A stretch of 64,000 nucleotides of DNA from Deltaproteobacteria bacterium (GTDB lineage Bacteria > Desulfobacterota > BSN033 > UBA1163), in contig VGRY01000006.1 in the NCBI GenBank assembly GCA_016875195.1, positions 27,541 through 91,540 of the forward strand. The letters run 5' to 3'. Each line of letters begins with the position of its first letter. Position 1 is the stretch's first letter. The notes under the pieces were generated by a model. That model was not told the DNA's origin, did no database searches, and saw only the letters and a list, made by a program, of their open reading frames with translations. Made by a program: the position numbers and the translations under genes. This document shows positions 7,184 to 61,400 of the stretch, piece after piece.

Positions 7184-7725
7184 GACTTCACCCCGCTCGG
7201 TTTATTATTTATTTTCTCAATAATTTTTTTGGCTTTGATTGAAGTCATCTCCCCATAAAACTTCTGGTCCACCATCATGACCGGGCCAATGGCACATACC
7301 CCGAGGCAGTTCACCACATTCAGAGAAAACTGTTTATCTGGAGTGGTCTGCCCTGGTTCGATACGGAGGAGACTCTTAAGTTCCCTTAAAATCTTTGGGC
7401 CTCCCCGAACATGGCATGCCGTCCCAAGACAGAGGGTAATGGAATGCTTTCCTTGAGGAACAAGGGTGAAGGACTTGTAGAAAGTCGCAACGCCATAGAC
7501 CTCATTGATGTCCATCCGGAGTCTTGACGCAACCACCTTAAGCGCCTCGATCGGGAGATATTTATACCGGTCCTGAACATCATGAAGGATGCTGATGAGG
7601 GCTGTCCTCTTTTCCTGATGCCTGTCTACGATTAAATCCACTGTTTTTAGGTCCATTTCACCTCCAAAATTATGTTTAGTTAACTTTTGTAAGATAAATA
7701 CATTTTCACTTAAATTATTTTGCAA
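7180..7725 (-). CDS. NuoE/HndA-like thioredoxin-fold 2Fe-2S subunit
   Basis: [60 protein letters not shown]. Overlaps the nuoF-like start by 4 nt. Confidence 0.9.
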
Positions 7726-15460: not shown

Positions 15461-15500
15461 TGAACGGGTGAATAAAAATTGTGGAAGAACGCATGCCAAT

Positions 15501-15535
15501 GGGGATACCCAGCAACCGGGTTATCCCCATTTTTT
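15501..15535 (+). terminator. Intrinsic terminator after gdh
   Basis: GGGGATA-cccagcaaccgggt-TATCCCC followed by ATTTTTT. Confidence 0.7.
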
Positions 15536-15617
15536 ATGATGTGACGACTTCCCAAATCTGATATTTTCGTATATGATAGGGCTATAAAATGAGTTCGAAA
15601 CTTATAAAGGAGGTGGC

Positions 15618-17354
15618 ATGCGGATATTGAGAATTGGGCTCTGTCAGATCAATACGACGGTAGGGGATATCGAAGGCAATACCAAAAAGATCCTCGACTA
15701 TATGGCCAGAGGAAAGCGGATGGGCGCAGACCTTCTGGTTTTTCCGGAGATGGCTGTCACAGGATACCCCCCTGAGGATCTCCTCTTCATGCCGAAGTTT
15801 ATTGAGGCTAACCTGAAAGCGATCAAAAAAATTGCCAGAGCCACTTCCTCGATCACAGCCATTGTCGGATTCGTCCATAAAGAGGGGGATATCTTTAACT
15901 CTGCAGCCCTCCTTCACCATGGCAAATTGATCGATGTCTATTCCAAGGTCTATCTTCCCAACTACGGGGTCTTTGATGAGTTACGATATTTCCACCCCGG
16001 CAAAGAAAATTTCATTTTCACTCTTCAAACCATCCCTATCGGCATCAGCATCTGTGAAGACCTATGGTATCCCGGAGATCCGGTCCGCACTCAAGCCCTC
16101 TACGGGGGAGCCGAACTGATGGTCAATATCTCCTCATCGCCTTATCATTCGGGAAAGACGACATCACGTGAAAAACTGATCTCCACCAGGGCCTCTGACA
16201 ATGTGGCCATCGTTGCCTATTGCAATCTGGTGGGAGGCCAGGATGAATTGGTCTTTGATGGCGGAAGTATGGTTTTTGATCAAAAGGGGGAGTTGGTTGT
16301 TCGGGGGAAACAATTTGAAGAGGATTTGGTCCTGGCGGATCTCGATCTGGAAGCGGTCTTTCGGATGAGGCTCCATGACCCCCGAATCAGAAGAGAGAAA
16401 CTGACCGAGGAAGAAAAATGGATAAAAAAAATTGACCTTCCACATCGAGCCCGTTCAGTAGGAAAAAAGCCGCCTATTCCGAAAAGAGATTCAAGGCCAT
16501 TGGATCACCTCGCTGAAATCTATTCTGCCCTGGTGCTTGGAACAGGAGACTATATCAAAAAAAATGGATTCCAGAAGGTCTTAATTGGCCTCAGTGGCGG
16601 AATTGACTCTGCTTTAACTGCGGCCATCGCAGTGGATGCATTGGGAAAGAAATCCGTGGTGGGAGTGGCAATGCCATCCCAGTATTCTTCGAAAGCCTCT
16701 CTGGAAGACGCAAAACTTCTGGCAAAAAACCTCAGCATTCAATTCCTCACCATCCCCATTGAAGAGGTCTTTGAAGCCTATCTTAAAACGCTCGCCTCAG
16801 CGTTTAAAAAACTAAAACCGGATGCAGCCGAAGAGAATATCCAAGCCCGGATTCGTGGAAATATCCTGATGGCCCTCTCCAATAAGTTTGGCTGGCTCGT
16901 CTTGACCACCGGGAATAAGAGCGAGATGAGCGTAGGCTACTGCACCCTTTACGGAGATATGGCCGGAGGGTATGCGGTTTTAAAGGACGTCCCAAAGACT
17001 CTGGTCTATGAATTAACCGAATATAAAAACAGAAAAGAGGGAAAGGCCATCATCCACCAAAATGTTATCGATAAACCTCCTTCCGCAGAATTGAGGCCAA
17101 ATCAGAAGGATGAGGATTCCCTCCCGCCCTACTCTATTCTTGACCCCATTCTTCAAGCTTATGTGGAAGAAGATAAGGGAGTGGATGAGATTACCAAGAT
17201 GGGGTTTAAAGAGAAAATGATCAAAGAAGTGATTCAGATGGTTGACCGGAATGAATATAAAAGGAGACAGAGCTCACCGGGAGTCAAGATCACCCACCGC
17301 GCCCTCGGAAAAGACCGAAGACTTCCCGTCACCAACAAGTATCGAAATTTTTAG
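15618..17354 (+). CDS. nadE: Glutamine-dependent NAD+ synthetase (CN-hydrolase domain + NAD synthase domain)
   Basis: N-terminal nitrilase-like domain (MRILRIGLCQINTTVGD..FPEMAVTGY..ICEDLW). C-terminal GLSGGIDSA PP-loop and the TGNKSE motif. Confidence 0.92.
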   Translation: MRILRIGLCQINTTVGDIEGNTKKILDYMARGKRMGADLLVFPEMAVTGYPPEDLLFMPKFIEANLKAIKKIARATSSITAIVGFVHKEGDIFNSAALLHHGKLIDVYSKVYLPNYGVFDELRYFHPGKENFIFTLQTIPIGISICEDLWYPGDPVRTQALYGGAELMVNISSSPYHSGKTTSREKLISTRASDNVAIVAYCNLVGGQDELVFDGGSMVFDQKGELVVRGKQFEEDLVLADLDLEAVFRMRLHDPRIRREKLTEEEKWIKKIDLPHRARSVGKKPPIPKRDSRPLDHLAEIYSALVLGTGDYIKKNGFQKVLIGLSGGIDSALTAAIAVDALGKKSVVGVAMPSQYSSKASLEDAKLLAKNLSIQFLTIPIEEVFEAYLKTLASAFKKLKPDAAEENIQARIRGNILMALSNKFGWLVLTTGNKSEMSVGYCTLYGDMAGGYAVLKDVPKTLVYELTEYKNRKEGKAIIHQNVIDKPPSAELRPNQKDEDSLPPYSILDPILQAYVEEDKGVDEITKMGFKEKMIKEVIQMVDRNEYKRRQSSPGVKITHRALGKDRRLPVTNKYRNF

Positions 17355-40085: not shown

Positions 40086-42266
40086 TTACTCTGGAAGCTT
40101 CACTTCAGGACGGCATATTCTGAGTTTCTGCATCCTTGCTCTCAGGGTGCTTGGGTGGAGGTCCAGAATTTCCGCGGCTCCCTTTAGCCCATTGATGCGC
40201 CACCGGGTTTCAGAAAGAGTCTTAAGAATCTGGTCTCGTTCCGTCTCCGCAAGGGTCCTCAGCGTGGATGGTAATAGGGGAGAGGTATTTTCCAGTTTAT
40301 CCGATAGCTTTAATAGCGGCCCGGAGGACAGGATCACAGCCCGCTCGATGACATTCTCAAGTTCCCGGATGTTTCCGGGCCACGAGTAATCCTGGAGTGC
40401 CTTCATCGTTTCCTTCTGAATTGATGTGATCTGTTTGCCCAGTCCTTTGGAAAGTCTCTCGATGAAGGTCTGAACCAGCAGCGGGATGTCCTCTTTCCGC
40501 TGCCTGAGCGGGGGCACCGTAATGGGAAAGGTGTTGAGCCGATAGTACAGGTCTTGTCGAAAACGACCCTTTCGAACCTCTTCTTCAAGGTTTCGATTGG
40601 TCGTTGCTATAATTCGCACGTCCACTCTGACCGTATGGGAGGAACCCAGACGTTCAAACGCATTGTGCTGGATCACCCGGAGCAACTTGGCCTGGACTTC
40701 CAGTGGTAATTCTCCTATCTCGTCGAGGCAAAGGGTCGAACCATTGGCCACCTCGAACCGCCCCACCTGCCGGGTATCAGCTCCGGTAAATGCCCCCTTC
40801 TCCCGGCCGAACAGCTCGCTTTCAATTAAATTGGCCGGCAGGGCTGCGCAGTTTACGGTGACCAGCGGCCGGTCCTTACGAGGGCTCATCTGATGGATGG
40901 CGGAAGCGATCAACTCCTTTCCCGTACCGGTCTCGCCGAGGATGAGGACCGTCGTGTTCGTCGGAGCGACCTGCTCCGCCCGATGAAGGACGTATTTGAA
41001 GGCATTGCTTTGACCGATGATATGGCCGAACTGGTATTTCAACTTAACTTCTTGCCGGAAGTAAAGATTCTCAGTCTCCAGTTGGTCTTTTAATGTCTTG
41101 ATCTCAGAAAGAGCATTGCGCAGGGATTCCTCCACGCTCTTATGTTCGGTGATGTCGTGGAGAATCTCCATCTTCATAACATCCCCGCGTTCGTTGAGGA
41201 TCGGCGTGCTAAAAGCATCATAGGTCTTGCCGGTTTGTGGCGAATCCCATTCCCACTGGACAGACTTTCCGGCAAATACCTCTTGAATCTTGCACCAGGT
41301 ACAGGGTGTCGGGAGATCATGAAAATAGGCATGGCACTTGCGTCCATTGACCGGGCCATGTTCCTTTTCGATGACGGGGTTAATGTACTGTATGTCACGA
41401 TTTTGATTGGTGATATAGACGCCGTCATTCAGGGATTCCAGGATGCCCTTCAGTTTATTACGTTCCAGTTGCAGGATCTTTTCGGTCTGCCTGCTTCGCT
41501 CGATCTCCTTCTTCAGTTGCTCGTTGGCTCTCTGGAGTTCGACAGTGCGCTCATGGCCCCGCTGCTCCAGGTATTCGAGCAAAGATTCCCGTTCCTCTTC
41601 CATCCTCTTGTTGGTGAGGATGATCGCCATGATTTTACCGAATCCGGAAGCCATGTGTGCGTCGTCTTCGGTGAATCCCCCTGGTTTGTTTGCAAAGCCA
41701 AGCAAACCTATCCCCTCCCCATTGACAATCATTGGAGCAAACAGAACATTAAAAAGCGGCAAAGGTCCTTCCGGCATCAATCTCATACGACCGCCATTCG
41801 AGAAATCATTCTGAAAAACGGCCCGCCTCGTATGGAACACCGTGTCACACAACACCCGAATAGGCATGGCAAGGTTGCAATCGACCGGGTAAGGCAATCC
41901 CTCCGAGTCCAGAAAAAAGACTCCATTTTCTGTGCCCTTCTTATTCAAAAGAGCAACGTATCCTATTTTGGCTCCAAGCAGGTTCTTGCAAGAATCGAAT
42001 AGGGTTTGGGTTGCCTCTTTAAAATCGTTTTGCACCAAGACAGCCTTCGCCCTGCTCATCAACCCCGATATCTCCTCTTGAGACCTCTGAGATTGTCCAA
42101 GAGTCTTAGTAAGAGTTTGCTCTGCTCTGATACGCTGGGCAGCTCTCCCGAGCTGAATGGCATACGCTTTTATCACGTGTGGCTGCCTCTCTAGAAAGGG
42201 ACTCTCATTGTCTATTGCCTTTTCGCCCATATCATCAACCTCAATCGACTTACAATGATTCAGCAA
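40086..42266 (-). CDS. sigma54-dependent transcriptional activator (GAF + PAS + AAA+ + Fis HTH)
   Basis: GETGTGKE Walker A, GAFTGA sigma54-contact loop, C-terminal [22 protein letters not shown]. Confidence 0.9.
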
Positions 42267-42271
42267 GGATG

Positions 42272-43054
42272 CTACTTGCGTCCATGAAAAGAGATCCCTT
42301 GAGTACCAAAATCGAGTGCACTCGATGGGTCAGGCACTCCCACAAACAGATCAGGGTACTTGTGGACAATCTTGACTTCTGAAAAACCAGCAGACTTCAC
42401 GGCGCTGATCAGCTCTGCTTCCAGCAGAGCGCCCGCAATTCAGCCCGTCCATAACGAGATGTCCTCCATCGCATCAGCAGGCACAGGGCGCTCGACGAGA
42501 ATATCGCCTATTTGCAATCGACCGCCTGGCTTGAGGATGCGAAACCACTCGCGAAGCATCGCGATTTTATCAACGGCAAGGTTTAGGACGCCGTTGCTGA
42601 TCACCACGTCTGCAAAGTGGTCTGGCAGGGGCAGAGATTCGATCAATCCCTCTCGGAACTCGACATTGGTCGCACCCATCGCCTTCGCGCCGGCGCGTGC
42701 TTTCTTCAGCATCTCTGGAGTCATGTCAAACCCGATGACCCGACCGGAGGGGCCAACCAAACGAGAGGCGATGAGGGAATCGAAGCCTGCACCGGAGCCA
42801 GCATCCACGACCGTCTCGCCCGGATGGATGGGACCGACAGAGAAGGGGTTGCCTGTACCGGCGAAAGAAGCAATGTTACTTTCAGGGAGGCCGGCAAACA
42901 GGCTCTCATCATACCCCAATATCTTCGCGGCACGGCGTCCAGTATGGAAATGGTAACCCTTGTCAGGGGTGAGGGCGACATGAGTGTATTCTTTGCTGAT
43001 CTCCTGTCGTAGCTCATGAAGTGAAATTCTGGGAAGGGCTTGCTGTGTGGTCAT
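42272..43054 (-). CDS. ArsM-like SAM-dependent methyltransferase with in-frame TGA (candidate selenocysteine) at 42442-42440
   Basis: [14 protein letters not shown] motif. The ORF track stops at ..ISLWTG-TGA, but the same frame continues [29 protein letters not shown].. for 55 sense codons to TAG 42274-42272. This continues the ArsM-like WxGC(I/V)xGAL..AGF pattern. Confidence 0.6.
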
Positions 43055-43078
43055 TGATTTCCTCCTTTCTTTAAGTTG

Positions 43079-43533
43079 TTATTGGGACCTTAGGCTGGCG
43101 TATTGATTGTTTTCTTCAAGCCGTGCGAGGCGCTCGATAATGGCGTTGTTGAGCAACTCAAACCACTCGACCCATTGAGGTTGACCATATTCAATCCGCA
43201 GTCCGATCCAAATCGATTCAACCTTTTTCCAGGAAGTGATGATTGGACCAGAGAGAAGGTCGTCAAGAAGATCGAGAGGGGCGAGTCGGCGCTTATAGAG
43301 GAGGCCCATGTTCTCGAAGAATACGCTTACGACCATGAGAGAGATGTGGTCATCTTCGGTAGCCGCCATCTTGAAGTCCTCATAGGCGTCATATTTCCAT
43401 GTGGTGACATGACGGTATCAATCTGGCGGAGGCGGTTCTGGTTGCGTAGCTGAAGAAGAGCGATGACGACGCCGACAATAATAGCGAGTGGAGCGGCGAT
43501 GGTAAGAGCCTTTTGAATAACCTCGAATGACAC
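43079..43533 (-). pseudogene. Membrane-anchored hypothetical protein split by an apparent frameshift near 43410
   Basis: ORF 43327-43533 (TM helix, LQLRNQNRLRQID) and ORF 43079-43369 overlap in different frames. The second frame is already open from 43416 (YRHVTTWKYDAYEDFKMAATEDD..). Confidence 0.45.
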
Positions 43534-43880
43534 GTTTCACCTCGCCATAGAAGGATTAAGAAACTCAAAGCACCCATGAAAGGTGCGTTAAGAATTAATA
43601 TGATTCTTAGTTTTTGACCATGTAGCCCCCCTAATTTAAAAATGGTCCCTCACAAAAAATACTTCCTTTCTATCATGAAAGCATATCCATGTGAGATTTT
43701 CTTTGACTTAAGTCAAAAAAAAACCGCAGGCTCGTCTGTTTGATTTTCAACAGACTGCCTAAACTTCAACAAAGAATTCCTTAAGACATGATTGCAACGT
43801 AACAACATTCCAGGATCTCTTTTCCGGTAACTATCCAATATTTTTTGTTAAATCAGCTTTTACCCTTTCCCATCAAGGTC

Positions 43881-43896
43881 TGGCACAAGGATTGCT
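43881..43896 (+). promoter_or_regulatory. sigma54 promoter TGGCAC-N5-TTGCT
   Basis: tggcacaaggattgct is a perfect consensus. 11 nt (ctctatactgc, no SD) lie between it and ATG 43908. Confidence 0.75.
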
Positions 43897-43907
43897 CTCT
43901 ATACTGC

Positions 43908-44594
43908 ATGAATGTTTTAATCATCAAACATGCGGAGATTGAAGGACCTGGATTGATTGGAGACCTTCTTGTGCAGGGGAAAATCCCCTATCAGATGATC
44001 GAACTCTATCTCAACACTCCCCTTCCCAAGCCTGAGGGTTTTTCACATATCGTCATCCTGGGAGGGCCGATGAATGTCTATGAGGAAGACCAATATCCTT
44101 TCCTTAGAAACGAAGACATTTTTATTAAAGAAGCGATTCAAAGGGGGAGAGCTATCCTGGGAATATGTCTGGGAGCCCAGTTGATCGCCAAAGCCTTGGG
44201 TGCAAAAGTTTTTAAAGCCCCTGTGAAAGAGATCGGATGGTATGAGGTCTCGTTGACCAGGGTAGGTTCTCAGGACCCTCTCTTCTCCAATCTTCCCAAA
44301 AAATTTCCTGTGTTCCAGTGGCATGAGGATACTTTTGAAATTCCAAGAGGAGGTCAATTGATCGCTACATCCAGCCCCGTGTCTCACCAAGCCTTCCGGT
44401 ATGGAGAGGCTGCTTACGGCCTTCAGTTTCATCTCGAAGTGACCAAAGAGATGATCCGTGACTGGTTGGAAGCTGATGAGGATGGGGATAAAAAACCCCA
44501 GATTTTAATTCAAACAGAGAGGAAGATCGAAAGCTATAAGCAAAGGGGAATGAACTTTTTTAGAACTTTTTTTGAGGCTCATGGACCCATTTAA
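43908..44594 (+). CDS. Class I glutamine amidotransferase (stand-alone GATase1, GuaA-N-like)
   Basis: MNVLIIKHAEIEGPG..ILGICLGAQL (nucleophile Cys)..FQWHED..LQFHLE. Confidence 0.85.
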   Translation: MNVLIIKHAEIEGPGLIGDLLVQGKIPYQMIELYLNTPLPKPEGFSHIVILGGPMNVYEEDQYPFLRNEDIFIKEAIQRGRAILGICLGAQLIAKALGAKVFKAPVKEIGWYEVSLTRVGSQDPLFSNLPKKFPVFQWHEDTFEIPRGGQLIATSSPVSHQAFRYGEAAYGLQFHLEVTKEMIRDWLEADEDGDKKPQILIQTERKIESYKQRGMNFFRTFFEAHGPI

Positions 44595-44625
44595 GACTTG
44601 AAACAGATTCTGCAGGAGGGATGCA

Positions 44626-48879
<4,254 letters not shown>

Positions 48880-48898
48880 GAGGTGCGCATCTAGTACA

Positions 48899-49087
48899 TT
48901 AGGCCACTTTTTTCTTCTTAAAAACCACAAGAGGTTTTGGCTGGCGACAAACAATTTGTTCCGAAAAGGGTTTCTGCATTTTTTTCAGGTGTTGGTAAAA
49001 TAATTCAGGATCTCGCTTAGCCTCGTTCTCAATCTGTTTTCGTATTCGACGCACTTCCTTTACGATTGGATCAGTCTTCATCTTCAA
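48899..49087 (-). CDS. Small basic hypothetical protein, overlaps the upstream PIN-like gene by 17 nt
   Basis: 62-aa ORF; no family recognised. Confidence 0.4.
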   Translation of the reverse strand: MKMKTDPIVKEVRRIRKQIENEAKRDPELFYQHLKKMQKPFSEQIVCRQPKPLVVFKKKKVA

Positions 49088-49574
49088 CCTCCATAAGTTC
49101 CTCGGGAGTACATACGATGGGTGTGCTAATCCCTTGAACTGTATTTATAGTCTGGACAACCGTCCGAACCCGAGGGTTGAGGATATGACCAAAATTCCAC
49201 GTTACTAAGAAGTCCATGCCGTGAAAAGCTGCCAGGGCAAAGTGATAGGTATCCCCTCTGGCTTTTTCAGGGATCTGTATAGCTCCAAAATAGGTGTCAG
49301 CCAATCGCCGCACCCCATTCGTAATTTCCAGTATCGGGAACTTAGCTATCTTCTCGATGCGCAATCTCGCCGCAGCTTCATCCCCTCGTGATATTTCTTC
49401 GATCACAAGAGATGAAATGAATGGTTCAAATAGTGGTAACCAATTCTCCCACCATTCTGTTGTTACCTGTTGGTGTGCAGCCACAAGCAGATCTCGACTC
49501 GGCCTTGAGGTTAAATAGCTTAACACAGTTGTCTCAATATAAACAGTTTGCTTGGGTATATTCTTCCTTTTCAT
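49071..49574 (-). CDS. PIN-like nuclease domain protein (VapC-like)
   Basis: VYIETTVLSYL..DTYHFALAAFHGMDFLVTWNFGHI resembles the PIN acidic-residue pattern. Confidence 0.45.
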   Translation of the reverse strand: MKRKNIPKQTVYIETTVLSYLTSRPSRDLLVAAHQQVTTEWWENWLPLFEPFISSLVIEEISRGDEAAARLRIEKIAKFPILEITNGVRRLADTYFGAIQIPEKARGDTYHFALAAFHGMDFLVTWNFGHILNPRVRTVVQTINTVQGISTPIVCTPEELMEVEDED

Positions 49575-49893
49575 TTGCTTATTGGCTTTATGCTTCTGTC
49601 AGTTGTACCCATCAACGCATTGTAATATACACCATTTAAAAAATATTTTGAAGTAAATATTTCAGAAAGAAATTTACAGATCCGAATTTCCATTAGATAG
49701 TAGAAATTTATAAGCAGATTACCCTCTCAACGGCTGAGTCAGGTTTCTTCTTTAGGTTCGTAGACGTCCAACGTTAAATCATTAGGGTTATTTTTTTAGA
49801 TAATCAATACCAAAATGGAATTTCCAAAAGATTCCCTGTTTATAACAAATGGATTTATCCAATCCTCCGAAATTCTTTTCCGAAATTCTTTTC

Positions 49894-49922
49894 TTGACTT
49901 AAATAGGAATCTATATTAGAAA
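49894..49922 (+). promoter_or_regulatory. sigma70-type promoter TTGACT-N17-TAGAAA
   Basis: TTGACT 49894-49899 and TAGAAA 49917-49922. The predicted TSS at ~49929 abuts P1. Preceded by a perfect 13-nt tandem duplication at 49867-49892. Confidence 0.5.
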
Positions 49923-49929
49923 TATTAAA

Positions 49930-49983
49930 AATACGAAGCTGTATTGGGGACGAGGGCGTCAAGGTTTATTGACGCCTTTTTTT
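49930..49983 (+). promoter_or_regulatory. ANTAR-type antiterminator/terminator module (kinase operon leader)
   Basis: P1 AATAC-GAAGCT-GTATT at 49930-49945. P2 GAC-GAGGGC-GTC at 49949-49960. Terminator GGCGTCAA-ggttta-TTGACGCC at 49955-49976 plus T7. Confidence 0.75.
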
Positions 49984-50201
49984 ATCCGCCTACGCAGAAG
50001 ACCACCCCGCTCAGCGGGATGGATGAATGCGCATAATTGCCAAAGTAAGTTATGGGTTTATAAATTACTGCTTCGGCGGATTTCGCTGAAGGCGGATAAC
50101 CCTCCGAAGCCTTGGCGTAGGAGGGTATCTTTATGGAGATACTACGAGCTTTGCCCGTGGGGCTCCATCGGTAGCCACTGGCCCAGCGGGTCAACAGTAG
50201 A

Positions 50202-51929
50202 ATGGGATCAATTGGATTGAATAAAAAAAATTCAATTCCCGATGCGAAAGAGATCAATGCTTTGCTTGAGATCAGTAAAGCCATCGCTTCGGGTCTCTAT
50301 CTCGAGGATGTCCTTCGTCTGATCGTGACGGTGACCGCTAATGTGATGGACTCGAAGATCTGTTCTCTCTGGATCCTCGATGAAAGAGATCAGAGGTTGA
50401 AATTAAAAGCCACCCAGTCCATCAGCGAAGAATACCTCAGGGAGAGAAGCCTGGCTCTTGGAGAGGGAGTGGTCGGTCATGTCGCCCTTCATAATAAACC
50501 CATGGCCATTGCCAATGTCCTTCAAGACCCTCTCTATAAGGAGAAAGAGTTAGCAAAGAGGGAAGGATTGGTCTCCATGCTCAGCGTGCCAATGTGCATC
50601 AAGGAGAAGGTGATCGGGGTGATCAACTGTTATTCGTCCTCCCCTCGAACCTTTTCGAAGTCGGAAGAGGAGATGCTCTCAACCGTGGCCAATCAGGCTG
50701 CCATCTGCATCGAAAACTCCGGCCTCATGGAAACCCTCGATATCGATGAAATCCTGAGGCTGGTGCTGGAAGGGGTGATCAAGAACATCGGATTTGATCG
50801 GGCACGACTCTATCTGATCAACGAAAAGAGAAATGTCCTTGAATGCAAGATGGCTGTGGGAGTGGATGTGGAGAAGATCAAAGGGATTGAACTCCCTCTT
50901 ACCCTCGAAAGCAGTGTGGTATCGAGGTCTGTGATTGAAAAGAAACCCTATTTCATTCCCGATGCCAGGAATGACCAAAGGGTCAACCCTGTTTTAAAAG
51001 AGAAATTCAATCTTCACTCCCTCGTGGTCATTCCTCTCTTCACAAAAGAAAAAGTTCTCGGGGTGATTGCCGCAGACCATATCGAACCCGGAAGAAGGCT
51101 GACACAGGAAACGCTCGATTCGGTGATGACTTTTGCTCAACAGGCAGGATTGGCCATTCAAAATGCCTCCATGTATCAGGAGCTCAAGAATTTCAGCCAG
51201 CAGATGGAGGAGAAGATTGAAAAGACAACTGCGGACCTCAGAAAAACAGAGGCTCAGTTGATTCGGTCTGAAAAACTGGCAGCCCTGGGTCAACTGGCCG
51301 CAGGCATTGCCCATGAAATCCGAAATCCTCTGACCAGCATCAACATCCTCATTCATTCGATGAGGGAGAAATTGCCCTCTGAACATTCACAGCAGGAAGA
51401 CCTGAAAGTGATCGAAGAGGAAATCTATCGCATGGATGAGATCGTCAGCCAGTTTCTTCGATTCGCAAAACCCGCTTCTCCATTCCTTGAAAAAACAGAT
51501 CCCCTCTCTATTTTTGAGGAGATCCTTCAATTGCTCAGGCCTCAGATAGAAAGGCAACGCATCATGGTTGAAAAGGAGTTCCAAGCCCTTCCTATGATCC
51601 TGATCGACCGTGAGCAGATGAAACAGGCCATGCTCAATCTTCTGCTCAATGCCATCCAGGCCATGCCGAAAGGAGGTCATCTGATCCTTTCAGGTCGGAA
51701 TTCCGAAGATGGCCAATGGGTTTGTCTATCCGTCCAGGACTCCGGAATAGGAATCTCTTCAGAAGACATGGATAAACTGTTCGACCCCTTCTTCTCCACA
51801 AAAGAGGGGGGAATGGGCCTTGGCCTCTCCATCACCCATCGCATCATTGACCAGCATCATGGAAAGATTGAGGTGAATAGCATCCCTGAAAAGGGAACGC
51901 TTTTTACAGTTTGGTTACCTATTTCATGA
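50202..51929 (+). CDS. Sensor histidine kinase: GAF-GAF-HisKA-HATPase_c
   Basis: First GAF is 106/157 identical to the GAF of the ANTAR protein (hand alignment). H-box AHEIRNPLTSI. N/G boxes LLLNAIQAM and DSGIGI..GGMGLGL. Confidence 0.9.
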   Translation: MGSIGLNKKNSIPDAKEINALLEISKAIASGLYLEDVLRLIVTVTANVMDSKICSLWILDERDQRLKLKATQSISEEYLRERSLALGEGVVGHVALHNKPMAIANVLQDPLYKEKELAKREGLVSMLSVPMCIKEKVIGVINCYSSSPRTFSKSEEEMLSTVANQAAICIENSGLMETLDIDEILRLVLEGVIKNIGFDRARLYLINEKRNVLECKMAVGVDVEKIKGIELPLTLESSVVSRSVIEKKPYFIPDARNDQRVNPVLKEKFNLHSLVVIPLFTKEKVLGVIAADHIEPGRRLTQETLDSVMTFAQQAGLAIQNASMYQELKNFSQQMEEKIEKTTADLRKTEAQLIRSEKLAALGQLAAGIAHEIRNPLTSINILIHSMREKLPSEHSQQEDLKVIEEEIYRMDEIVSQFLRFAKPASPFLEKTDPLSIFEEILQLLRPQIERQRIMVEKEFQALPMILIDREQMKQAMLNLLLNAIQAMPKGGHLILSGRNSEDGQWVCLSVQDSGIGISSEDMDKLFDPFFSTKEGGMGLGLSITHRIIDQHHGKIEVNSIPEKGTLFTVWLPIS

Positions 51930-51974
51930 TGACCGATGAACCATCATCTGTTCATCGTATTGAAAGGGGCAAAC

Positions 51975-53414
51975 ATGCAGACGATCCTCATTGTTGACGA
52001 TGATAAATCGATCCGCTACTCTCTGAAAAGGATGCTGGAAGATCATTTTTCCATCCTCACTGCCCAGAATGGAGAAGAAGCCCTATCGCGCATGAAAGAA
52101 TCTTCCCCTGATCTGATCATCATGGATATCAAGATGCCTGGCCGGAACGGAATCGATGTGTTGAAGGAGATGAAGTTCCTTGACCCGAAGTCCCTCATCA
52201 TTCTGATGACCGCCTATGGCACTACAGAGACGGCGATCGAGGCGATGAAATTTGGGGCTTTCGATTACATCCTCAAACCTTTCCCGATTCCACAGATGAA
52301 AGAGTTGGTGCAAAAGGCGATCGCATTGCGGAAACTGATGAAGGAAGAAGTCTCCTATGCATCCGAACCGGATCAACAAAAAGAGGAAGAACAGATCATC
52401 GGTTCCGCTCCCAAGATGCAGGAGATCTATAAGGTGATCGGACAGGTGGCTCCCAGCGATGTCACTGTCCTCCTCAGAGGCGAGAGTGGAACGGGAAAGG
52501 AATTAGTGGCACGTGCAATCTATCACTACAGCCTCCGTTCGAGCTACCCGTTTCTTCCGGTCAATTGTGCTGCCATCCCGGATACCCTTCTCGAAAGTGA
52601 ACTCTTCGGCCATGAAAAAGGAGCTTTTACCGGTGCCATCTCCAGGCGCATCGGAAAACTGGAACAATGTCAGGGAGGGACCATTTTTCTGGATGAAATC
52701 GGTGACATGTCTCTCTCCACTCAGGCCAAACTCCTCAGAATCCTTCAGGAAAAGACTTTTGAAAGGCTTGGGGGAAGGGAAACGCTCAGGGTGGATATTC
52801 GATTTATCGTGGCAACGAATAAAGATCTTGAAGAGGCGATGGTCAGGGGGGAATTTCGTGAAGACCTCTATTACCGGCTCAATGTGGTCTCTATCAAGAT
52901 TCCTCCTTTAAGGGAAAGAAAAGAGGATATCCCGAACCTCACCTCTTACTTCTTAAAAAAATTCAATCGTGATTTAAAGCGGAAGGTCGCCGGGATCACT
53001 CCATCGGCAATGGGAAAAATCACCTCCTACGGATGGCCAGGAAATGTGAGACAATTGGAAAATGTTCTGAAAAGAGCCGTGCTCCTCTGCCAGGGAGAAT
53101 GGATTCTTGATGATCAACTCCTTCTTGATGTAGAAGAGAGACGAGAGGCTGCAGAGGTTCTGAAAGGAAAGACATTCGAGGGCCTACTCGATTCCCTCTT
53201 TATGGAACTCACGGAAACCTCCCCGGACCGGGAAGGTCTGGATATGGTTTCAGCCATTGAGAAAGGGTTGATCCTTCGTGCCCTTCAAAAGACGAACGGA
53301 AACCAGGTTCAGGCAGCTTCGCTTCTCGGAATCAATCGGGGCACGCTCCGGAGCAAAATGGAGCGGTATCACATTAGAAAAGAGGTGCTGGTTTCCGAAG
53401 AGGATAATGAATAA
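51975..53414 (+). CDS. NtrC-family sigma54-dependent response regulator (REC-AAA+-Fis HTH)
   Basis: MQTILIVDDD..DLIIMDIKMPG, GESGTGKE, GAFTGA, and C-terminal AASLLGINRGTLRSKM. ATG 51975 with SD aagggg is preferred over 51936. Confidence 0.9.
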   Translation: MQTILIVDDDKSIRYSLKRMLEDHFSILTAQNGEEALSRMKESSPDLIIMDIKMPGRNGIDVLKEMKFLDPKSLIILMTAYGTTETAIEAMKFGAFDYILKPFPIPQMKELVQKAIALRKLMKEEVSYASEPDQQKEEEQIIGSAPKMQEIYKVIGQVAPSDVTVLLRGESGTGKELVARAIYHYSLRSSYPFLPVNCAAIPDTLLESELFGHEKGAFTGAISRRIGKLEQCQGGTIFLDEIGDMSLSTQAKLLRILQEKTFERLGGRETLRVDIRFIVATNKDLEEAMVRGEFREDLYYRLNVVSIKIPPLRERKEDIPNLTSYFLKKFNRDLKRKVAGITPSAMGKITSYGWPGNVRQLENVLKRAVLLCQGEWILDDQLLLDVEERREAAEVLKGKTFEGLLDSLFMELTETSPDREGLDMVSAIEKGLILRALQKTNGNQVQAASLLGINRGTLRSKMERYHIRKEVLVSEEDNE

Positions 53415-53589
53415 ATTTCTCTGTTTCAAAAACAGATGATCACCTTTTTTAACCAACCTGATTAATTTTCATCATTTCCACCTAACCCTCTATCTTTGTC
53501 CAGGAGTTTCATCTCTTTCTTACTAAAATAATCCTATGTGATTACAAAAGGTTACAACATATTAACTTGCCTGCGTAGATTACGAACAA

Positions 53590-53605
53590 TGGCATATTAT
53601 TTGCT
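53590..53605 (+). promoter_or_regulatory. sigma54 promoter TGGCAT-N5-TTGCT upstream of glnA
   Basis: tggcatattatttgct with canonical spacing. The predicted TSS at ~53616 is 4 nt before P1. Confidence 0.75.
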
Positions 53606-53619
53606 ATTAATATTTCGTT

Positions 53620-53684
53620 AATACGATGGGGTATTAGAATGACAAGGGCGTCTTTCTTAAAACGGAGAGACGCCTTTTTATTTT
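53620..53684 (+). promoter_or_regulatory. ANTAR-type antiterminator/terminator module (glnA leader)
   Basis: P1 AATAC-GATGGG-GTATT at 53620-53635. P2 GAC-AAGGGC-GTC at 53641-53652. Terminator GGCGTCTTTC-ttaaaacg-GAGAGACGCC at 53647-53674 plus TTTTTATTTT. Confidence 0.75.
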
Positions 53685-53690
53685 AATAAA

Positions 53691-53780
53691 GCACGAATAC
53701 CACGAATGAATAACGAATTACGCGAATCAAAACATAGAAGGTTTTATTCGGTAAATTCGTTATTATTCGCCTAATTCGTA
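53691..53780. repeat. Imperfect palindrome (E8) of CACGAAT/ATTCGTG-type words inside the glnA 5' UTR
   Basis: gcacgaataccacgaatgaataacgaattacgcgaatc ... attcggtaaattcgttattattcgcctaattcgta. Confidence 0.7.
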
Positions 53781-53799
53781 ACTACACAAGGAGGAGAAG

Positions 53800-55122
53800 A
53801 TGGACAAAGCAACTGTATTGAAGATGGCGAAGGAGAATGATGTCAAATTTATCCGACTCTGGTTTACGGACATTCTGGGATTTCTGAAGGGGTTTTCGAT
53901 CACCATCCATGAACTCGAAGGGGCCCTTGAGGAAGGCATGGGGTTTGATGGTTCCTCGATCCAGGGATATGCTCGAATCGACGAAAGCGATATGATCGCT
54001 AAGCCTGACCCAAAGACCTTCCAGATCATCCCGTGGCGACCCAAAGAGAATGCAGTAGCCCGGATGTTTGCCGATGTCTATGAACCTGATGGAACCCCCT
54101 ACAAAGGCGACCCCAGATTCGTCTTAAAAAAGACTCTTAAGAAGGCGCATGACCTTGGATATACCTTATATGTCGGGCCTGAACTGGAATATTTCTACTT
54201 TAAAAGCAGTGATGGGGCGCCACAGATTCTTGATAAAGGAGGATATTTTGACCTCACCCCTCTGGATGTGGCAACCGAACTCCGGCGTGAAACCATTCTC
54301 ACACTTGAAGCCATGGGTATCAGGGTGGAATACAGCCATCACGAGGTAGCCCCGAGCCAGCATGAGATCGATCTCCGTTATGCCGAGGCTCTGAGCATGG
54401 CAGACAATGCCATGACCTATCGCCTCGTGGTGAAGGAGGTTGCATTGAGACACGGTGTCTACGCCACATTCATGCCCAAACCCATTTTTAAACAGAACGG
54501 AAGCGGGATGCACACCCATCAGTCCCTTTTCAAGGGTGACACGAATGTCTTCTTCGATCCGAAGGATGAATTCCATCTTTCAAAGATTGCCAAGTCTTAT
54601 ATGGCCGGAATTTTAAAACATTCAAAGGAAATCACCTCCATCACCTCCCAGTGGATCAACTCTTACAAAAGACTTGTCCCAGGATACGAAGCGCCGGTCT
54701 ATATCGCCTGGGCCCGGAGAAACCGTTCGGCACTGGTCCGGGTTCCCATGTATAAACCTGGAAAAGAGAAAGCCACACGGATGGAACTCCGCTCCCCCGA
54801 TCCGGCATGCAATCCCTATCTGGCCTTTGCTGTCATGTTGGCTGCAGGCCTGAAGGGAATCGAGAAGGGTTATGAACTTCCGTCTCCTGTTGAGGAGGAC
54901 ATTTTTGAGATGTCTGAAGAGGCACGGAAAAGACACGGAATCGAATCGCTTCCGGGAAGTCTATATGAAGCCATCCAGCTCACCGAACAGAGTGAACTGG
55001 TAAGAGAAACCCTTGGAGACCACATCTTCCATAAATTCATTGAAAACAAGAAGATCGAATGGGATCAGTACCGGACCCACATCTCCCAGTTCGAATTGGA
55101 GAAGTATCTGCCTATTCTTTAA
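53800..55122 (+). CDS. glnA: Glutamine synthetase type I, paralog 2 (complete, 440 aa)
   Basis: GMGFDGSSIQGY, GPELEYFYF, HHEVAPSQHEIDLRY, NGSGMHTHQSLF, RVPMYKPGKEKATRMELRSPD. SD aaggagga upstream. Confidence 0.95.
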   Translation: MDKATVLKMAKENDVKFIRLWFTDILGFLKGFSITIHELEGALEEGMGFDGSSIQGYARIDESDMIAKPDPKTFQIIPWRPKENAVARMFADVYEPDGTPYKGDPRFVLKKTLKKAHDLGYTLYVGPELEYFYFKSSDGAPQILDKGGYFDLTPLDVATELRRETILTLEAMGIRVEYSHHEVAPSQHEIDLRYAEALSMADNAMTYRLVVKEVALRHGVYATFMPKPIFKQNGSGMHTHQSLFKGDTNVFFDPKDEFHLSKIAKSYMAGILKHSKEITSITSQWINSYKRLVPGYEAPVYIAWARRNRSALVRVPMYKPGKEKATRMELRSPDPACNPYLAFAVMLAAGLKGIEKGYELPSPVEEDIFEMSEEARKRHGIESLPGSLYEAIQLTEQSELVRETLGDHIFHKFIENKKIEWDQYRTHISQFELEKYLPIL

Positions 55123-55429: not shown

Positions 55430-58400
55430 GTGAGCCAGAAGAGAGAAAAGTTAGCCTGGAGAAAGTATATTGAAGATTTTTTACAGCAAAGCCCGGACTT
55501 GAAGGCCATTTCCGACCCAGAGAAACTCGAATACTACCGGAATGACCTCAATGTGGACCTCCCGCCTTTGATCCGGGGCCTGATGCTCAAAAGCCTTCCC
55601 GACCTTATTCTCCAGCCTGCAACTGAAGAACACCTCCTCAATATCTTTGCATTTGCAAGCAAACATAAAATCCCTTTAACCGCCAGGGGCGCGGGAACAT
55701 GGGGTTACGGTGGAGCTGTCCCAACCCGCGGAGGAATTGTTATCGACCTTAGCTCGATGGATACGATTGAGGTTGATCCAGGAACCCTCCAAGTGACAGT
55801 TGGACCGGGAGCTCGTTTTGCCGATATCCACGCAGAACTTGAAAGACACGGCCTCACCTTACTTACCATGACATCCGGCAAGGGCGGAACCCTTGCAGGC
55901 TGGATGGCTACGGGTGGAATGGGATTCGGAACCTATTATCACGGACCAGTAAAGAATCAGATCATTTCCCTGCGGGTCATTACCCCTGATGGAAATGTTC
56001 TGAATCTAAAAGGGGATGATCCTGAGATCAACCATTTCCTCTCAACAGAAGGGCAGATGGGAATCATCGTAAAGGCCATATTGAAGTCTGGGCAAAAACC
56101 AGCCCATTGGTTTCCATTTGTCGTCCCTTTCGAAAAGGCATCTAACGCATATGCATTTGTCAGTAAACTTGACCGCCATCCATTTATCAAACCCCATGAC
56201 CTCATCGTCTATCATGCAGGATTGGCGCGCGTCCTCCAGTCAAAGTCAAATGGAAGATTGACTGTTGGAGATAAACATCTCGTTCTCATTGCCTTCGCTG
56301 ACCAGGAGCAGTCTCAATTGTTTAGACTCTACCTGGATGAGAGTGGAATTCAAATAGCAGATGAGGAATCAGCCTCTTTTCTCTGGGAGGAACGATTCCT
56401 TCCGATATCCATCAAGCACCTCGGCCCTTCTCTCTTAGCGACAGAGGTGATCCTGCCGCTTGATCAAGTGGGAGCCTATGAAGAAAAGATAAGTGAGTGG
56501 GGGAAGCGGTTGGGCTTAACTTTCTATTCCTCTTCCCATCTCATCAATCGAGATCAGGTCCTCTTTCTTGCCATGATCACCTCTGATCACAGGAAGGCCA
56601 TCTTCTACATCGACCTCATGCTCGTTCCGATGATGGTCAGGCTGGCCATTCAGTTTTACAGCGGAAAGCCCTACGGTCTGGGAATATGGAACACGCCTTT
56701 TCTCCGTGACCTCTTTTCAAAAGAAGAAGTGACAAAACTGGTTCAATATAAGAAGAAGGTAGACCCTCATGGAATCCTCAATCCGGGAAAGTTTTTTACT
56801 GTATCTGGAAAACTGGGTCCTCTTCAGAAGATGATCTTTCATTCGGATATCTTCAACCTCGAACTCACCGCGATGAACTGGCTTCTCTTCAAGCTCTTCT
56901 CCATCATTCCTGAGAAGACCCTTAGGCAGCAACTGCCAGCTTCACCCCTGGGGCTTGAAGGGGTTTCAAATGAGGTCAACTCCTGCGCCCAGTGCGGAAA
57001 TTGTGTCTCCCGATGTCCAGTTTATCGGGCAACAAGAGATGAAACCTTCTCAGCGAGAGGCAAACTTCTGACGATCAAGAGGGCAATGGAGACGAAGAAG
57101 ATCGAGCTGTCAAAGGTCTTACCTCTCTACTTCTGTCTCCACTGCGGCCGTTGTGATGAAGAGTGCCAGGTCAACATCAAACATCGCCCACTTTACAGCA
57201 ACCTCGAAGCCCATTTCTCCAGTACCATCGACTTCCCGATCCAGGAGGTGACCCGCTTCATCCAGGAAGTTGAAAATAGTCCGGAGTTCTACCGGTTCCT
57301 CGACGTGATCAGAACGGGGTTCGACCAGAAAGTTCGTGAACAGCGGCAGACGTTCCCCAGGTACCATGTGGCGATTGACGACGAACACTGTATCCATTGT
57401 GGGACCTGCGTCGATGCCTGCATCTACGGTGTTCGAAAACGTGACGAGAAAGATCCACGTTGCGTGGTGATTGCCGATGAAGCGCTCTGCCGGGGCTGCG
57501 GTTCCTGTCTTGAGCGTTGCCCACAGGTCGCCAAAGGAATCCCGGCAACCACTGTGGAACTCCACCCGGATTACCTGAGCATGCACGACCCGTACTGGAC
57601 GAGTGAAGCCATCACCCGTATCGACCTCGAAGCCACCACCGGAAAGATCCCTGTTTCCGGGACTGGACAGGGAGATCCCCATCGCGGTTACGGCAATGAC
57701 GGGATTCGCTTCGGCCACTTTCATATTGTCGGCCCTGCTCAGAACCTCCTCTATGAAAGTTCTGAGGATGCCATCTCGATCCTGATTGGACAAAGGCCAA
57801 AATACCTGACCTTTGACGGGGAAACTCTCAAAACCCCGCCTCCACGGTTGATCCATTTAAAGACACCCCTGATCCTCGATATCATGCCCATGGATGGAGG
57901 AGAAGATCTGTTGGAGCCCATGTTCGAGGCAGTCCAGCAAACAGGAACCCGACTGACGCTCCGCCTCGAAGAGTTGGAACGTTATGAGTCGCGGATTGCC
58001 GATCGGATGAAGAATCTAATATTGAGATTAACTTCTGAAGACTTGAAAAGCCTTCTCAATGGAAAGGCATGGCCGGAGGTGTTGAAAAACAATCCTCCTG
58101 ATCTGGTCGAAATCGAGCTGGAGGGAGAAGCCTTAAAAAAGGCAGAGAAAATTTCAGCGCTCCTCCCGAATTCGGTTCTCTGTGCTGTCATTAAAATTGA
58201 AAAGGGATTTGTTGATGCAGAGCTTCGGCCCACCTCTGCCCTGAAGAAAAAACTGGAGTCCCTCTTCGAATCGCCTTTTGATGCTATCTGCCTCACTTCT
58301 GATTATGATTCAGAAAAAGGGTACTACCCCACTACCGATGCTGTTCCTGCTGTTCACCGTTTTCTCGTAGAAAAGAAAATTCGCCATCGCTTTTCTATCC

Positions 58401-61400
58401 TGGCAGCTGGTGGAATCCGTTCTGCAGCCGATTCTCAGAAAACGATCCAGCGCGGTGCAAATGGGATCAAGATCGATTGGCCGGTCCTTCTGGCTGCCAA
58501 TCCTCAAGCACGACAGAAATTTTCACAGGGAGAGCGCCTCCATCTTCTCCATGATTCCTCCTCCCTAACCAAACGGATCACCCACCTTATTCGGGTCTGG
58601 AATGTCCAGATCATTGAAGTCTTGGGCGCTTCAGGGTTTAAGGATATTAAAAAGACGGTTGGAGAGGAAAACCGTCTCCTCATCTTCGATGACCTCGAAG
58701 AAAGGGTCTATGACATTTTCAAAAACAAAGATTGCATTGAAAGAAACCGTGTGACTAATCTGGCACGTCTCCAGAGGGAAGGCAAAGGTGATGGCTGGAA
58801 ATACAGTCAATTGAAGAATTTGATCAAACCTACTCAATCCCCTCACCGGTTCTATAGCTGCAGCCTGAAGTCTTCCTGTTACCAGATTTTCGACCGCGAT
58901 TATGTCTGGCCAGCCTCTCTGATTGCTTCGGTGGGCCATATGGCAAGTGGAAATCCAGAAACGCTTCAACTTGGCCACACAGAGGAGCGCGGGAATTTAG
59001 GGGATGGTTTTGATTTCATACAGGTCCTCTTTCAACGCAACCCCGATACCCTTTCGGAAGATCTCATTGACCATGTCTCCACCAGTCTTCAGATCAATCC
59101 TGAATTGAGGCTAAAAGCCCCCTTTATTGGAGCAGGAATGTCAGTGGGTTCAATCGGACCTGGAACCTGGCGCGCCCGGGTCCTGGCCACTCGTGCCCTT
59201 GGGACACAGATGGACACGGGTGAAGGAGGATATCCCACTTTCTATATCCTCGATGAAAAGTGGAACTCTATTGATTTGACCGACGCACAGGTTCTCCTGC
59301 TTGGCCAGATCATGGAGCCCCGGAAATTGATTCCCATGGCTGAGTTGATCAGAAAGGTCCAGGAAGAATTGGCAGAATCTCCTGAAATTGAAAAAATTCT
59401 ACAGGTTCTCCAGAAATATCCGGCCTCCAGGACTGTTCAGTTTGTCCCAATCGTCTTGCACGAAGACGAACCTTATGTCTCCACCCAGCTCAAGACAGGT
59501 CTCTTTGGGGTAACCAAGGAGACGATTCGGAAGGCACGTCGTGTGGTAATCGCGTACAGCCAGGGAGCAAAACAGGGTGTGGGCGGTCATCTATTAGGCC
59601 GAAAAGTGTTTGGTCTGGTCTCAAGGCTCCGCGGCGTGGCAGAAGGGGTCAGCCTCATCTCCCCCTTCCCCTTCCATAATTGCTACTCCATTGAAGATGT
59701 GAAGGCCTTCATCGATGCAGTACGCATGATCAACCCGCAGGCCTCGATCTGCATCAAGGTCTCCCCATCGCCTGATATCGAGTTTATCGTCTCCGGGCTC
59801 GCCCGGATTGCCAAGGACAACAGGATGGCCATTGAGGTCTGGCTCGATGGGCCTCGCGGAGGGACAGGTGCAGCCCCAGACATCATCAAGGGTCAGATGG
59901 GAATGCACATCGAATATGCCATCCCCATCTGTCATGAGAAATTGATTAGTGATGGACTGAGAGATAACGTCGTTTTCCTGGGAAGCGGTGGATTTCGCAC
60001 CTGGGGAGATATGGTGAAAGGCATAGCCATGGGGTTGGATGGCATTGTCCTCGGTACCTCTGATCTGGTTGCTATTGGCTGTGTTCGTGACCGCAATTGC
60101 GAGTCAGGATGTCGAAGTGGAATCTCAACGATTGAACCCAAAATGCAATTGCTAAGAGATGTCGGGATCAACACCCAGCAGTTGATCAATTTCCGTGCCA
60201 TCTTACAGGCTCAGGTTGCAAGGGCTGTCGCGGGCCTTGGATTGGAAGACATCCGTGAACTTCGGGGCCGATATGATCTGATTCAATGGCCTGTGCTCGA
60301 AGAAAGGGTCCAGGAGCGTCGTCGCCGTCGTTCTGAGATCTCAATCAAGGAACCGTCACGAATCTATCCCTCTGATTCATTCCCTCATTATACATTGAGC
60401 GAATCAGCACCTCCTCCTTCGGATTGTGGTGTGGCAGCGATCGTCTCCAACCATTTCATCCCGAGCCATGTGATGGACCTGATGCTCGACCGGATGGCAA
60501 ACCGTGGAATGGACGGTGTGGGCATATGGAAAGGAGGATGTTACCCGGCTCATATCGACCACTATGCCTTCCATGTCCTGATTAAAGGGACTCTCCAGCC
60601 TCAGGTTGAAGAAAAATTCTCGTTAGCCCATCCGAACCTGAATTCTGAAGAGGTCCGGCAAATGGCCCGGAGAAAAATTCTCTCTAACCGACGTCTCCTC
60701 ATGCGAGAGATTCTGGAGAAATATTTCTATGGTCTTCAACTCGATTCATTCGATGGGGATCTGGAGAAATGGAGAATTCCGTATAAACGCGATGAAAACG
60801 GAAGGGAGAGAGATTTTCTATATTATGGAGAAAGAGATCCCGGAGATGTTTTCCGGTTCTTTGTCCGCGTCCTGCCGCCCGAACTCTTTCGCTTCATTGA
60901 AGATGAGTTACTCAATGATCCCATTTGGCCCCCACGACAGGTCCGTTACCAACATCTGACCGTTCAAAATTATAGGGAGAATAAGGAATTTCTGCGGGAA
61001 GCTGAGGACGAATATATCTATCGACTCTCACGTAAGATCACTCGTGAGAATTATGTAGAAGCTCACCAGAAGAAGGCATCTGTACTCTCCTGTGGTAAAA
61101 ACTCCGGCTGCTGGAAGACGGATGGTCAACATATCCCATGGGAAACTCCGGATGCTCCGGTCAATGTGATTCATAGACGGCTGGCCACGGGATCTGTGGT
61201 GGATCAGATGAACTCCCATCCTTTTGCCGAACTGCACACAGCATTGACGCATAATGGAGAGACGACGAATTATCGCACCATGTTGAATCGGGTTTCCCAA
61301 ACGAACTTAACACCGCTGGCTCAAACCGACACCGCAGTAGCTTCCCTGAAGCTCCATCTGCTCAGTCAGTATCTCCACTATCCCTTTGATGCCCTGGTAG

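Follow-up and report, generated by a model that had tools for sequence, protein, structure and literature searches.

An in-frame UGA in an ArsM-like methyltransferase gene of a Desulfobacterota contig as a candidate selenocysteine codon

We analyzed a methyltransferase gene on the minus strand of a 64,000-nucleotide (nt) stretch of DNA from a Deltaproteobacteria bacterium (assembly GCA_016875195.1, contig VGRY01000006.1, positions 27,541 to 91,540), referred to below as the window. Comparison with related sequences indicates that the in-frame UGA at codon 205 of this gene is very probably decoded as selenocysteine (Sec), which would make it a selenoprotein gene that has been shortened by gene callers. 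The original prediction, made from the letters of the window, had read a UGA at a conserved Cys position of ArsM, followed by a hairpin resembling a bacterial selenocysteine insertion sequence (SECIS), as a candidate selenoprotein. The evidence from the alignment column, from the sequence 3′ of the UGA and from the hairpin agrees with that reading. The gene belongs to an established selenoprotein family, in which the position of Sec (UxxG) has been in the literature since 2007/2008.

The open reading frame (ORF) starts with ATG at 43054 and runs to ..DISLWTG, where it meets the TGA at 42442-42440. Gene callers annotate a product of 204 amino acids (aa) that ends at this codon, and exactly this 204-aa portion is present on 11 independent contigs. 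The frame stays open past the TGA for 55 sense codons, up to a TAG at 42274-42272. Inspection of the sequence and its ORFs confirmed the end of the ORF, the continuation and the position of the TAG, all of which had been given with correct coordinates in the original prediction. The methyltransferase gene contains one TGA, and the protein would end at residue 260. Its features are as follows.

43061..43066, minus strand: Shine-Dalgarno sequence AGGAGG, 6 nt 5′ of the ATG, found by sequence inspection
42272..43054, minus strand: full coding sequence (CDS) of an ArsM-like S-adenosylmethionine (SAM)-dependent methyltransferase, a candidate selenoprotein of 260 residues with Sec as residue 205 and a TAG stop; matches in Pfam, NCBIfam and PDB
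42854..42856, minus strand: codon of Thr67, in the column of CmArsM C72 (GCGNP changed to GTGNP, within FAGTGNP), from alignment to CmArsM, CrArsM and Cys-type homologues
42785..42811, minus strand: SAM-binding motif VVDAGSGAG, residues 82-90, which aligns with vLDLGcGtG of CmArsM and is nearly invariant among homologues
42590..42592, minus strand: codon of Gly155, in the column of CmArsM C174 (SNCV changed to SNGV, within ISNGV), from the same alignment
42440..42442, minus strand: in-frame UGA, putative Sec codon 205, motif U-I-A-G, aligned with CmArsM C224 and human AS3MT (hAS3MT) C206
42412..42430, minus strand: SECIS hairpin within the CDS, with stem 42430-42423 / 42419-42412 and apical loop GGA at 42422-42420
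42275..42439, minus strand: 55-codon tail 3′ of the Sec codon, which contributes a final helix and the closing pair of beta-strands to the methyltransferase fold, from alignment to CmArsM through residue 234 and from the model of P0032 (see below)
42272..42274, minus strand: true stop TAG; the next gene, for a sigma-54 activator, starts 42 nt further on, at window position 42230 by the gene call on L052, an identical JGI contig

The TGA and the sequence that follows it are conserved over a wide range of bacteria. Proteins were compared with a 5.8-billion-protein collection, and loci were compared on contigs at one genome per species. Among the 120 nearest protein clusters, 119 end with ..LWTG at the same codon, and 107 have no Cys. 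At the level of DNA, a TGA followed by (I/V)(A/G)GAL and a tail of 55-61 codons was kept in 26 species-level genomes from about eight phyla. The conserved tails end in ..RARKP followed by TAG, TAA or TGA, as tabulated for 23 of the 26 genomes. On the Chloroflexota side, the carriers belong to Anaerolineales, Caldilineales, Ardenticatenaceae, Dehalococcoidia and Chloroflexia. Those in Desulfobacterota belong to Syntrophobacteraceae and Desulfobacteraceae and include an isolate, Desulfatitalea alkaliphila M08but; further carriers are found in Adiutricales, Dormibacteraeota, Gemmatimonadota, Planctomycetota and Polyangiaceae (Myxococcota). Across 24 loci, both the length and the sequence of the tail are maintained. 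Substitutions in it are most frequent at the third codon position (4495 versus 2901 and 2692 at the other two), and conservation peaks directly 3′ of the TGA (IAGAL), ahead of any start codon.

In more distant homologues, the Sec column is occupied by TGC or TGT. Cys was found at this column in the ArsM proteins of PDB, in 10 genome loci and in 98 of the best 150 representatives when 1.84 billion cluster representatives were searched exhaustively, while TGA or truncation was found at 26 loci and in about 30 of these representatives. An alignment with Cys-encoding homologues had been proposed as a check of the column, and they do align with their Cys codons opposite the UGA.

The read-through product is a class I SAM-dependent methyltransferase (Pfam Methyltransf_31/25/11). 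Its best matches in PDB by sequence are CmArsM, CrArsM and hAS3MT, with E values down to 3.5e-26. The UGA stands in the column of the Cys of 'geC(L/I)(G/A)GAL' in CmArsM and CrArsM (C224 of CmArsM), the position that had been predicted for it, and the homology runs about 30 residues further; the tail is therefore ArsM sequence. A lack of homology in the 55 codons would have pointed to a plain truncated gene, but the tail both aligns with ArsM and is conserved. The window protein contains no Cys residue. The other two Cys columns of ArsM are occupied by Thr67 and Gly155 in the alignments, in line with the replacements noted earlier.

The fold was modelled on P0032, a full-length relative that is 67% identical and has Trp at the Sec column. 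In its AlphaFold2 (AF2) model (pLDDT 62, pTM 0.68), the tail forms a helix (residues 212-221) and two strands (226-234 and 251-258). The model is of moderate quality overall and weak around the Sec loop, residues 185-209, and was used for the overall fold and not for the geometry of the active site. A Foldseek search with it gave CrArsM (5evj), CmArsM (4fr0) and hAS3MT (8xt7) as the first matches. Because the tail holds the last strands in this model, the 204-residue product would miss the end of the fold.

The third line of evidence is an RNA hairpin immediately 3′ of the UGA, GCUCUGCU-GGA-AGCAGAGC, with 8 base pairs and a 3-nt loop. Its isolated fold has −11.7 kcal/mol, its stem begins 9 nt after the UGA, and its loop begins 17 nt after the UGA. 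The bSECIS criteria are a loop of 3-9 nt, a G in the first two loop positions, a spacing of 16-37 nt and a minimum free energy (MFE) of −7.5 or below, and the values of the hairpin lie within all of these. The stem was found at +13 to +31 from the U of the UGA in all 28 aligned sequences, in which the loop is GGA, GGU, GUA or GUG. In this register, 92.4% of the cells were paired, compared with 28-50% when the 3′ arm was slid by 1-3 columns. Changes on both sides of a pair (compensatory changes) were seen at five of the eight pairs. Two Caldilineales, for instance, have GCUCUAU/AUAGAGC, in which a replacement of Ala by Ile is matched by altered Leu codons. The covariation score was reached by none of 500 shuffles. 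Resampling of synonymous codons with the same peptides gave P of about 0.01 in 24 of the 28 sequences; selection therefore acts on the pairing as RNA, and the pairing does not simply follow from the protein. In ten homologues that encode Cys, just 2-5 of the eight pairs can form in the register of the hairpin.

A covariance model trained on the 26 other genomes, with the window excluded, matched the 64 kb at one site, 42442-42403, with 59.8 bits and E = 9e-18, whereas its second-best match had E = 0.27. The SECIS-like hairpin placed at 42430-42412 by the original prediction is thus borne out by its dimensions, its covariation and this match. An extension of the stem by GGC/GCC, which had also been proposed, fared less clearly: many sequences are predicted to form such a lower stem, yet in registers that differ between clades, and only the upper hairpin is established. 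Like the bacterial SECIS of the bSECISearch model (Escherichia coli fdhF/fdnG type), the element is a stem-loop within an ORF, just 3′ of the UGA, with a loop of 3-5 nt that begins with GG. The distance of 17 nt between the UGA and the loop, the upper stem of 8 base pairs and the energy of −11.7 kcal/mol are all inside the published ranges. Unlike the fdhF-type SECIS, it shows no sequence similarity to fdhF and has no conserved bulged U.

Three related loci depart from the common arrangement. The contig of P0032 (L001, Logan ERR12040029) has TGG (Trp) at 1337-1339 in place of the TGA and can still form the hairpin, which carries two compensatory changes, GGUCUGCC-GGA-GGCAGACC. Either Sec was naturally lost to Trp here, or the TGG is an error of assembly or sequencing. 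In the Planctomycetota metagenome-assembled genome (MAG) FR_29 (L026, about 4140-5750), two tandem in-frame methyltransferase paralogues each have a TGA at the same column (..PALWAS-TGA-VAGALP..); the pair may be a two-domain protein with two Sec or two adjacent Sec genes. In a Polyangiaceae MAG (L034, 5001-6503), a frame of 509 codons stays open past the TGA and reaches a second ArsM-like methyltransferase domain, whose residue at the Sec/Cys column is Gly.

These features suggest the following sequence of events. When a ribosome arrives at the UGA, the hairpin, with its 8 base pairs and GGA loop lying 9 nt 3′ of the UGA inside the CDS, would be bound by SelB with GTP and Sec-tRNA(Sec). Sec would then be inserted at codon 205 in competition with termination by release factor 2 (RF2). 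In E. coli, recoding at Sec codons in vivo was measured at 30-40%, with termination by RF2 competing, in the data given by PMC4513850. Translation of the 55 further codons would complete the Rossmann-like fold. The Sec would be placed at an As(III)-binding Cys position of ArsM/AS3MT, beside the methyl group of SAM. As the lone residue of the thiol/selenol type, it would be alone in serving the methyl-acceptor substrate as ligand or nucleophile; a soft metalloid or a chalcogen species is the likeliest such substrate.

Several results weigh against the decoding of the UGA as Sec. No selA, selB or selD domain was found in the 64-kb window, using the Pfam gene calls of L052 and a Pfam scan of the remaining ORFs of at least 150 aa. 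ARAGORN found no tRNA gene in the window and no tRNA-Sec (selC) there or in 28 related loci. With no Sec machinery in the window or in the related flanks, the capacity of the organism to decode Sec is only presumed. When a 61-nt stretch was compared with dinucleotide shuffles, it showed no extra stability (z = −0.62), so folding of the single sequence provides no evidence. An Rfam scan of 42200-42600 on both strands, with E up to 10, gave no match, a result that is uninformative since the bacterial SECIS content of Rfam was unchecked. The TGG in P0032 implies that the position tolerates, or has undergone, a loss of Sec at least once.

As for lineages in which such genes occur, Chloroflexota include selenoprotein-rich members, the Dehalococcoidia, with 46-49 selenoproteins (BSepDB). 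In three Anaerolinea contigs, ARAGORN called an 85-nt 'tRNA-Gln(ctg)' about 400 nt 5′ of the gene (L003 4504-4588, L055 9504-9588 and L056 6021-6105), opposite a CDS of 578-650 aa. These calls are not tRNA-Sec and are probably false positives.

We considered three other explanations of the in-frame UGA. It is very unlikely that the UGA is a real stop, with a functional 204-residue protein and, downstream, a small ORF or a regulatory or terminator element. The region directly after the TGA (IAGAL), which precedes any start codon, is the most strongly conserved, even though a 42-codon ORF with a GTG start can be drawn inside the tail (42400-42272). The Cys homologues are continuous ORFs, and the tail aligns with the ArsM core and supplies the last two strands of the model, so that 204 aa would leave the Rossmann fold unfinished. 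A role of the hairpin in attenuation or mRNA stability is conceivable in principle, but it has no trailing U-run, and its 9-nt distance from the UGA is fixed in all lineages. In favour of a stop is the competition with RF2 described above, which leaves recoding at just 30-40% even at genuine Sec codons.

Still less probable is read-through of the UGA as another amino acid, by a reassigned code (Trp/Gly) or by a suppressor or near-cognate tRNA (Trp/Cys). Such a reading would account for the TGG (Trp) in one relative and would need none of the Sec machinery that was not seen in the window. TGA is, however, the normal stop of many window genes with complete Pfam domains, and no other convincing gene with an in-frame TGA was found in the 64 kb, where only at the methyltransferase locus does a real gene show two sizeable coding parts; a reassigned code is therefore excluded. 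Moreover, homologues have Cys at this position, as is the hallmark of Sec/Cys pairs, and neither Trp nor Gly, and the adjacent hairpin fits the SECIS model. A truncated gene or pseudogene, arisen by a recent nonsense change from TGC/TGT to TGA at a Cys codon, is already refuted in practice by the comparative data: although a single base change would suffice, 55 open codons past a stop are not very rare by chance and gene callers do annotate the 204-aa product, the same TGA occurs in 26 species of about eight phyla, 119 of the 120 nearest clusters share it, the tail has kept its length, its sequence and its pattern of substitution by codon position, a covarying RNA hairpin adjoins the TGA, and the exact 204-aa part recurs on the 11 independent contigs.

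The selenoprotein family to which the gene belongs has been described repeatedly. It was a search for Sec/Cys pairs that brought ArsM-type selenoproteins to light (Fomenko et al. 2007, Science, cited as reference 87 in PMC13188914). In the Global Ocean Sampling (GOS) metagenomes, PRK11873 was represented by 8 Sec and 245 Cys sequences (Zhang & Gladyshev 2008, PMC2398784), and ArsM-type selenoproteins were later reported in 39 organisms (Peng et al. 2016, PMC5029168). The review PMC13188914 lists the family with the motif UxxG under NF008823. For multi-Sec fusions, NCBI has the 'exception' models NF041537, NF041536 and NF047649 (Haft & Tolstoy 2025, as cited in the same review). The window protein resembles the UxxG family, whose published representative is WP_011987699.1, in its superfamily, in the column of its Sec (U-I-A-G), in having one Sec per protein and in having a SECIS directly downstream in the CDS. 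It differs in that it scores under the cutoff of NF008823 (229 versus 263 bits).

Among the NCBIfam models, the top match is NF041537, 'arsenite methyltransferase/AhpD domain selenoprotein', with 241 bits over residues 13-231 against a cutoff of 510. It is followed by NF008823, 'arsenite methyltransferase' (229.1 bits), NF047649, 'methyltransferase/UXPK-star double selenoprotein' (219 bits, cutoff 460), and NF041536, ArsM/DUF2284 (210 bits, cutoff 575). The best curated matches are all ArsM-type, and each is under its cutoff. The fusion selenoproteins of NF041537 (ArsM/AhpD, UU), NF041536 (ArsM/DUF2284, UU) and NF047649 (UXPK-star) have the same UxxG Sec, but they are two-domain or tail-extended proteins with 2-3 Sec, whereas a second TGA, an AhpD or DUF2284 domain and a U-x-P-K end are all missing from the window protein. 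With canonical ArsM/AS3MT (CmArsM 4fr0, CrArsM 5evj, hAS3MT 8xt7; NF008823), it shares the class I SAM core, GxGxG and the C-terminal (W/Y)xG-C/U-(I/V)(A/G)GA. Unlike them, it lacks the Cys of GCGNP and SNCV and has Sec for the third Cys; it also has neither the C-terminal domain that the algal and human enzymes carry (260 aa versus chains of 377-387 aa) nor an ars operon context.

The three Cys columns divide the best 150 representatives into the following types, where x/x denotes replacement at the first two columns.

71 of the best 150 representatives: canonical, GCGNP / SNCV / GC
About 30 of the best 150: x/x ending at the Sec column, FAGxGNP / SNGV / truncated
24 of the best 150: x/x with Cys, FAGxGNP / SNGV / Cys
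0 of the best 150: canonical but truncated at the column, GCGNP / SNCV / truncated

Among these representatives, Sec use is confined to the x/x clade; the query is itself x/x, so canonical Sec forms may rank lower. The C72 and C174 columns have lost their Cys in every Sec-type member. The eight canonical representatives that were scanned with NF008823, of the 71, all passed with 302-398 bits, whereas the scanned x/x members had 175-229 bits and all failed. By this curated criterion, the window protein is a sister of ArsM and not a member.

Some proteins of the clade are fused to other domains. The partners are TusA (P0155 and P0190), a DsbA-like thioredoxin (P0249), MerC (P0150, and weakly P0259), MerTP with HMA (P0173, below the cutoff) and DUF2652 (P0129, P0131 and P0147, which are truncated at the Sec column). 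They give a hint of sulfur or selenium carriers or of soft-metal handling.

For the function of the window protein, we rate two readings about equal, and each is possible without being probable. In one of them, it would be an ordinary arsenite methyltransferase, an ArsM orthologue in which Sec merely replaces one Cys. The nearest structures and curated families are all ArsM/AS3MT, and the literature files the Sec forms as 'arsenite methyltransferase'. In addition, one Cys is enough for TtArsM of Thermus thermophilus HB27 to methylate As(III) (PMC8649762), so the lone Sec is by itself no argument against arsenite. The suggestion in the original prediction that a lone Sec points to a different substrate therefore does not follow from the lone Sec by itself and stays an inference. 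TtArsM is alike in being an ArsM-like enzyme that works with one cysteine-type residue, but the residue it keeps, C77, is in the C72 column and not in the C224 column, it has no Sec, and its lineage is distant.

Against an ordinary ArsM stand the scores below the curated cutoffs, among them that for NF008823, and the state of the three As(III)-binding Cys (C72/C174/C224 in CmArsM; C61/C156/C206 in hAS3MT). Two of the three are absent from the window protein, which keeps only the third column, as Sec, and the same two are lost in all Sec-type members. Methylation of inorganic arsenite (iAs(III)) normally takes three cysteines and that of methylarsenite (MAs(III)) two, as stated in PMC3877260. 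With one selenolate and no resolving Cys, the canonical arsenite mechanism cannot apply unchanged. No arsR, arsC or acr3/arsB neighbours were found in the window or in the related loci, 24 of which entered the neighbour clustering. The fusion partners TusA, DsbA-like, MerC/MerTP-HMA and DUF2652 also speak against this reading.

In the other reading, which we hold as tentatively as the first, the clade would be a distinct one-selenol/one-thiol methyltransferase and not an arsenite methyltransferase, and its Sec or Cys would receive a chalcogen or soft-metal substrate from partner proteins. The substrate may be the sulfur or selenium of a persulfide or perselenide, or Hg or As delivered by a carrier. 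We keep this reading because of the fusions with TusA, DsbA-like, AhpD, MerC/MerTP-HMA and DUF2652 and because Sec is confined to the clade among the best 150 representatives.

Decoding of the UGA as Sec would have consequences for annotation. The NCBI/JGI entries named 'methyltransferase domain-containing protein', like the 119 of the 120 nearest clusters, break off where Sec is encoded and omit the last two strands. A corrected annotation would add a selenoprotein to many genomes of Chloroflexota, Desulfobacterota and other groups. The clade keeps one of the three As-binding positions, very often as Sec, and could serve as a test case for a lone selenolate in an ArsM-type active site. It also raises the question of whether some enzymes tallied as 'arsM' in environmental counts act on another substrate. 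Nothing here alters how Sec decoding is understood in general; what remains of interest is a Cys-free, one-Sec clade outside the ArsM criteria and the extent of its truncated annotation.

No conserved gene neighbourhood was seen across the related loci examined. Weak recurrence, at five loci apiece, was seen for OsmC-like proteins, a further class I methyltransferase and an alpha/beta hydrolase. In the window, the GAF/PAS sigma-54 activator lies directly downstream of the methyltransferase gene (40086-42266, minus strand). Just 5′ of the gene, at 43079-43533 (minus strand), there are two overlapping small ORFs, one of 68 aa with an N-terminal hydrophobic helix and one of 96 aa with no Pfam match. 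The pair is conserved in same-species contigs only and may be one frameshifted or mis-called gene.

Around the methyltransferase gene, the window carries genes of nitrogen metabolism and regulation. Further away, at 2044-7725 (minus strand), NuoE-like, NuoF-like and 2Fe-2S (Fer2_4, 223 aa) proteins precede a membrane protein of 581 aa whose domains are NnrS/COX1-like and DUF1858; no in-frame TGA candidate was found in this gene set. Genes for GDH and NAD synthase are at 14213-17354. A dense nitrogen regulation region at 43845-55122 contains GATase, an Amt ammonium transporter, P-II, GlnD uridylyltransferase, a GAF-HisKA kinase with an NtrC-type regulator, and glutamine synthetase. It is followed at 55430-63025 (plus strand) by a 2531-aa ORF with FAD_binding_4, several 4Fe-4S, a Glu_synthase core, GXGXG and GATase_6, which looks like an unusual fused glutamate-synthase-like protein.

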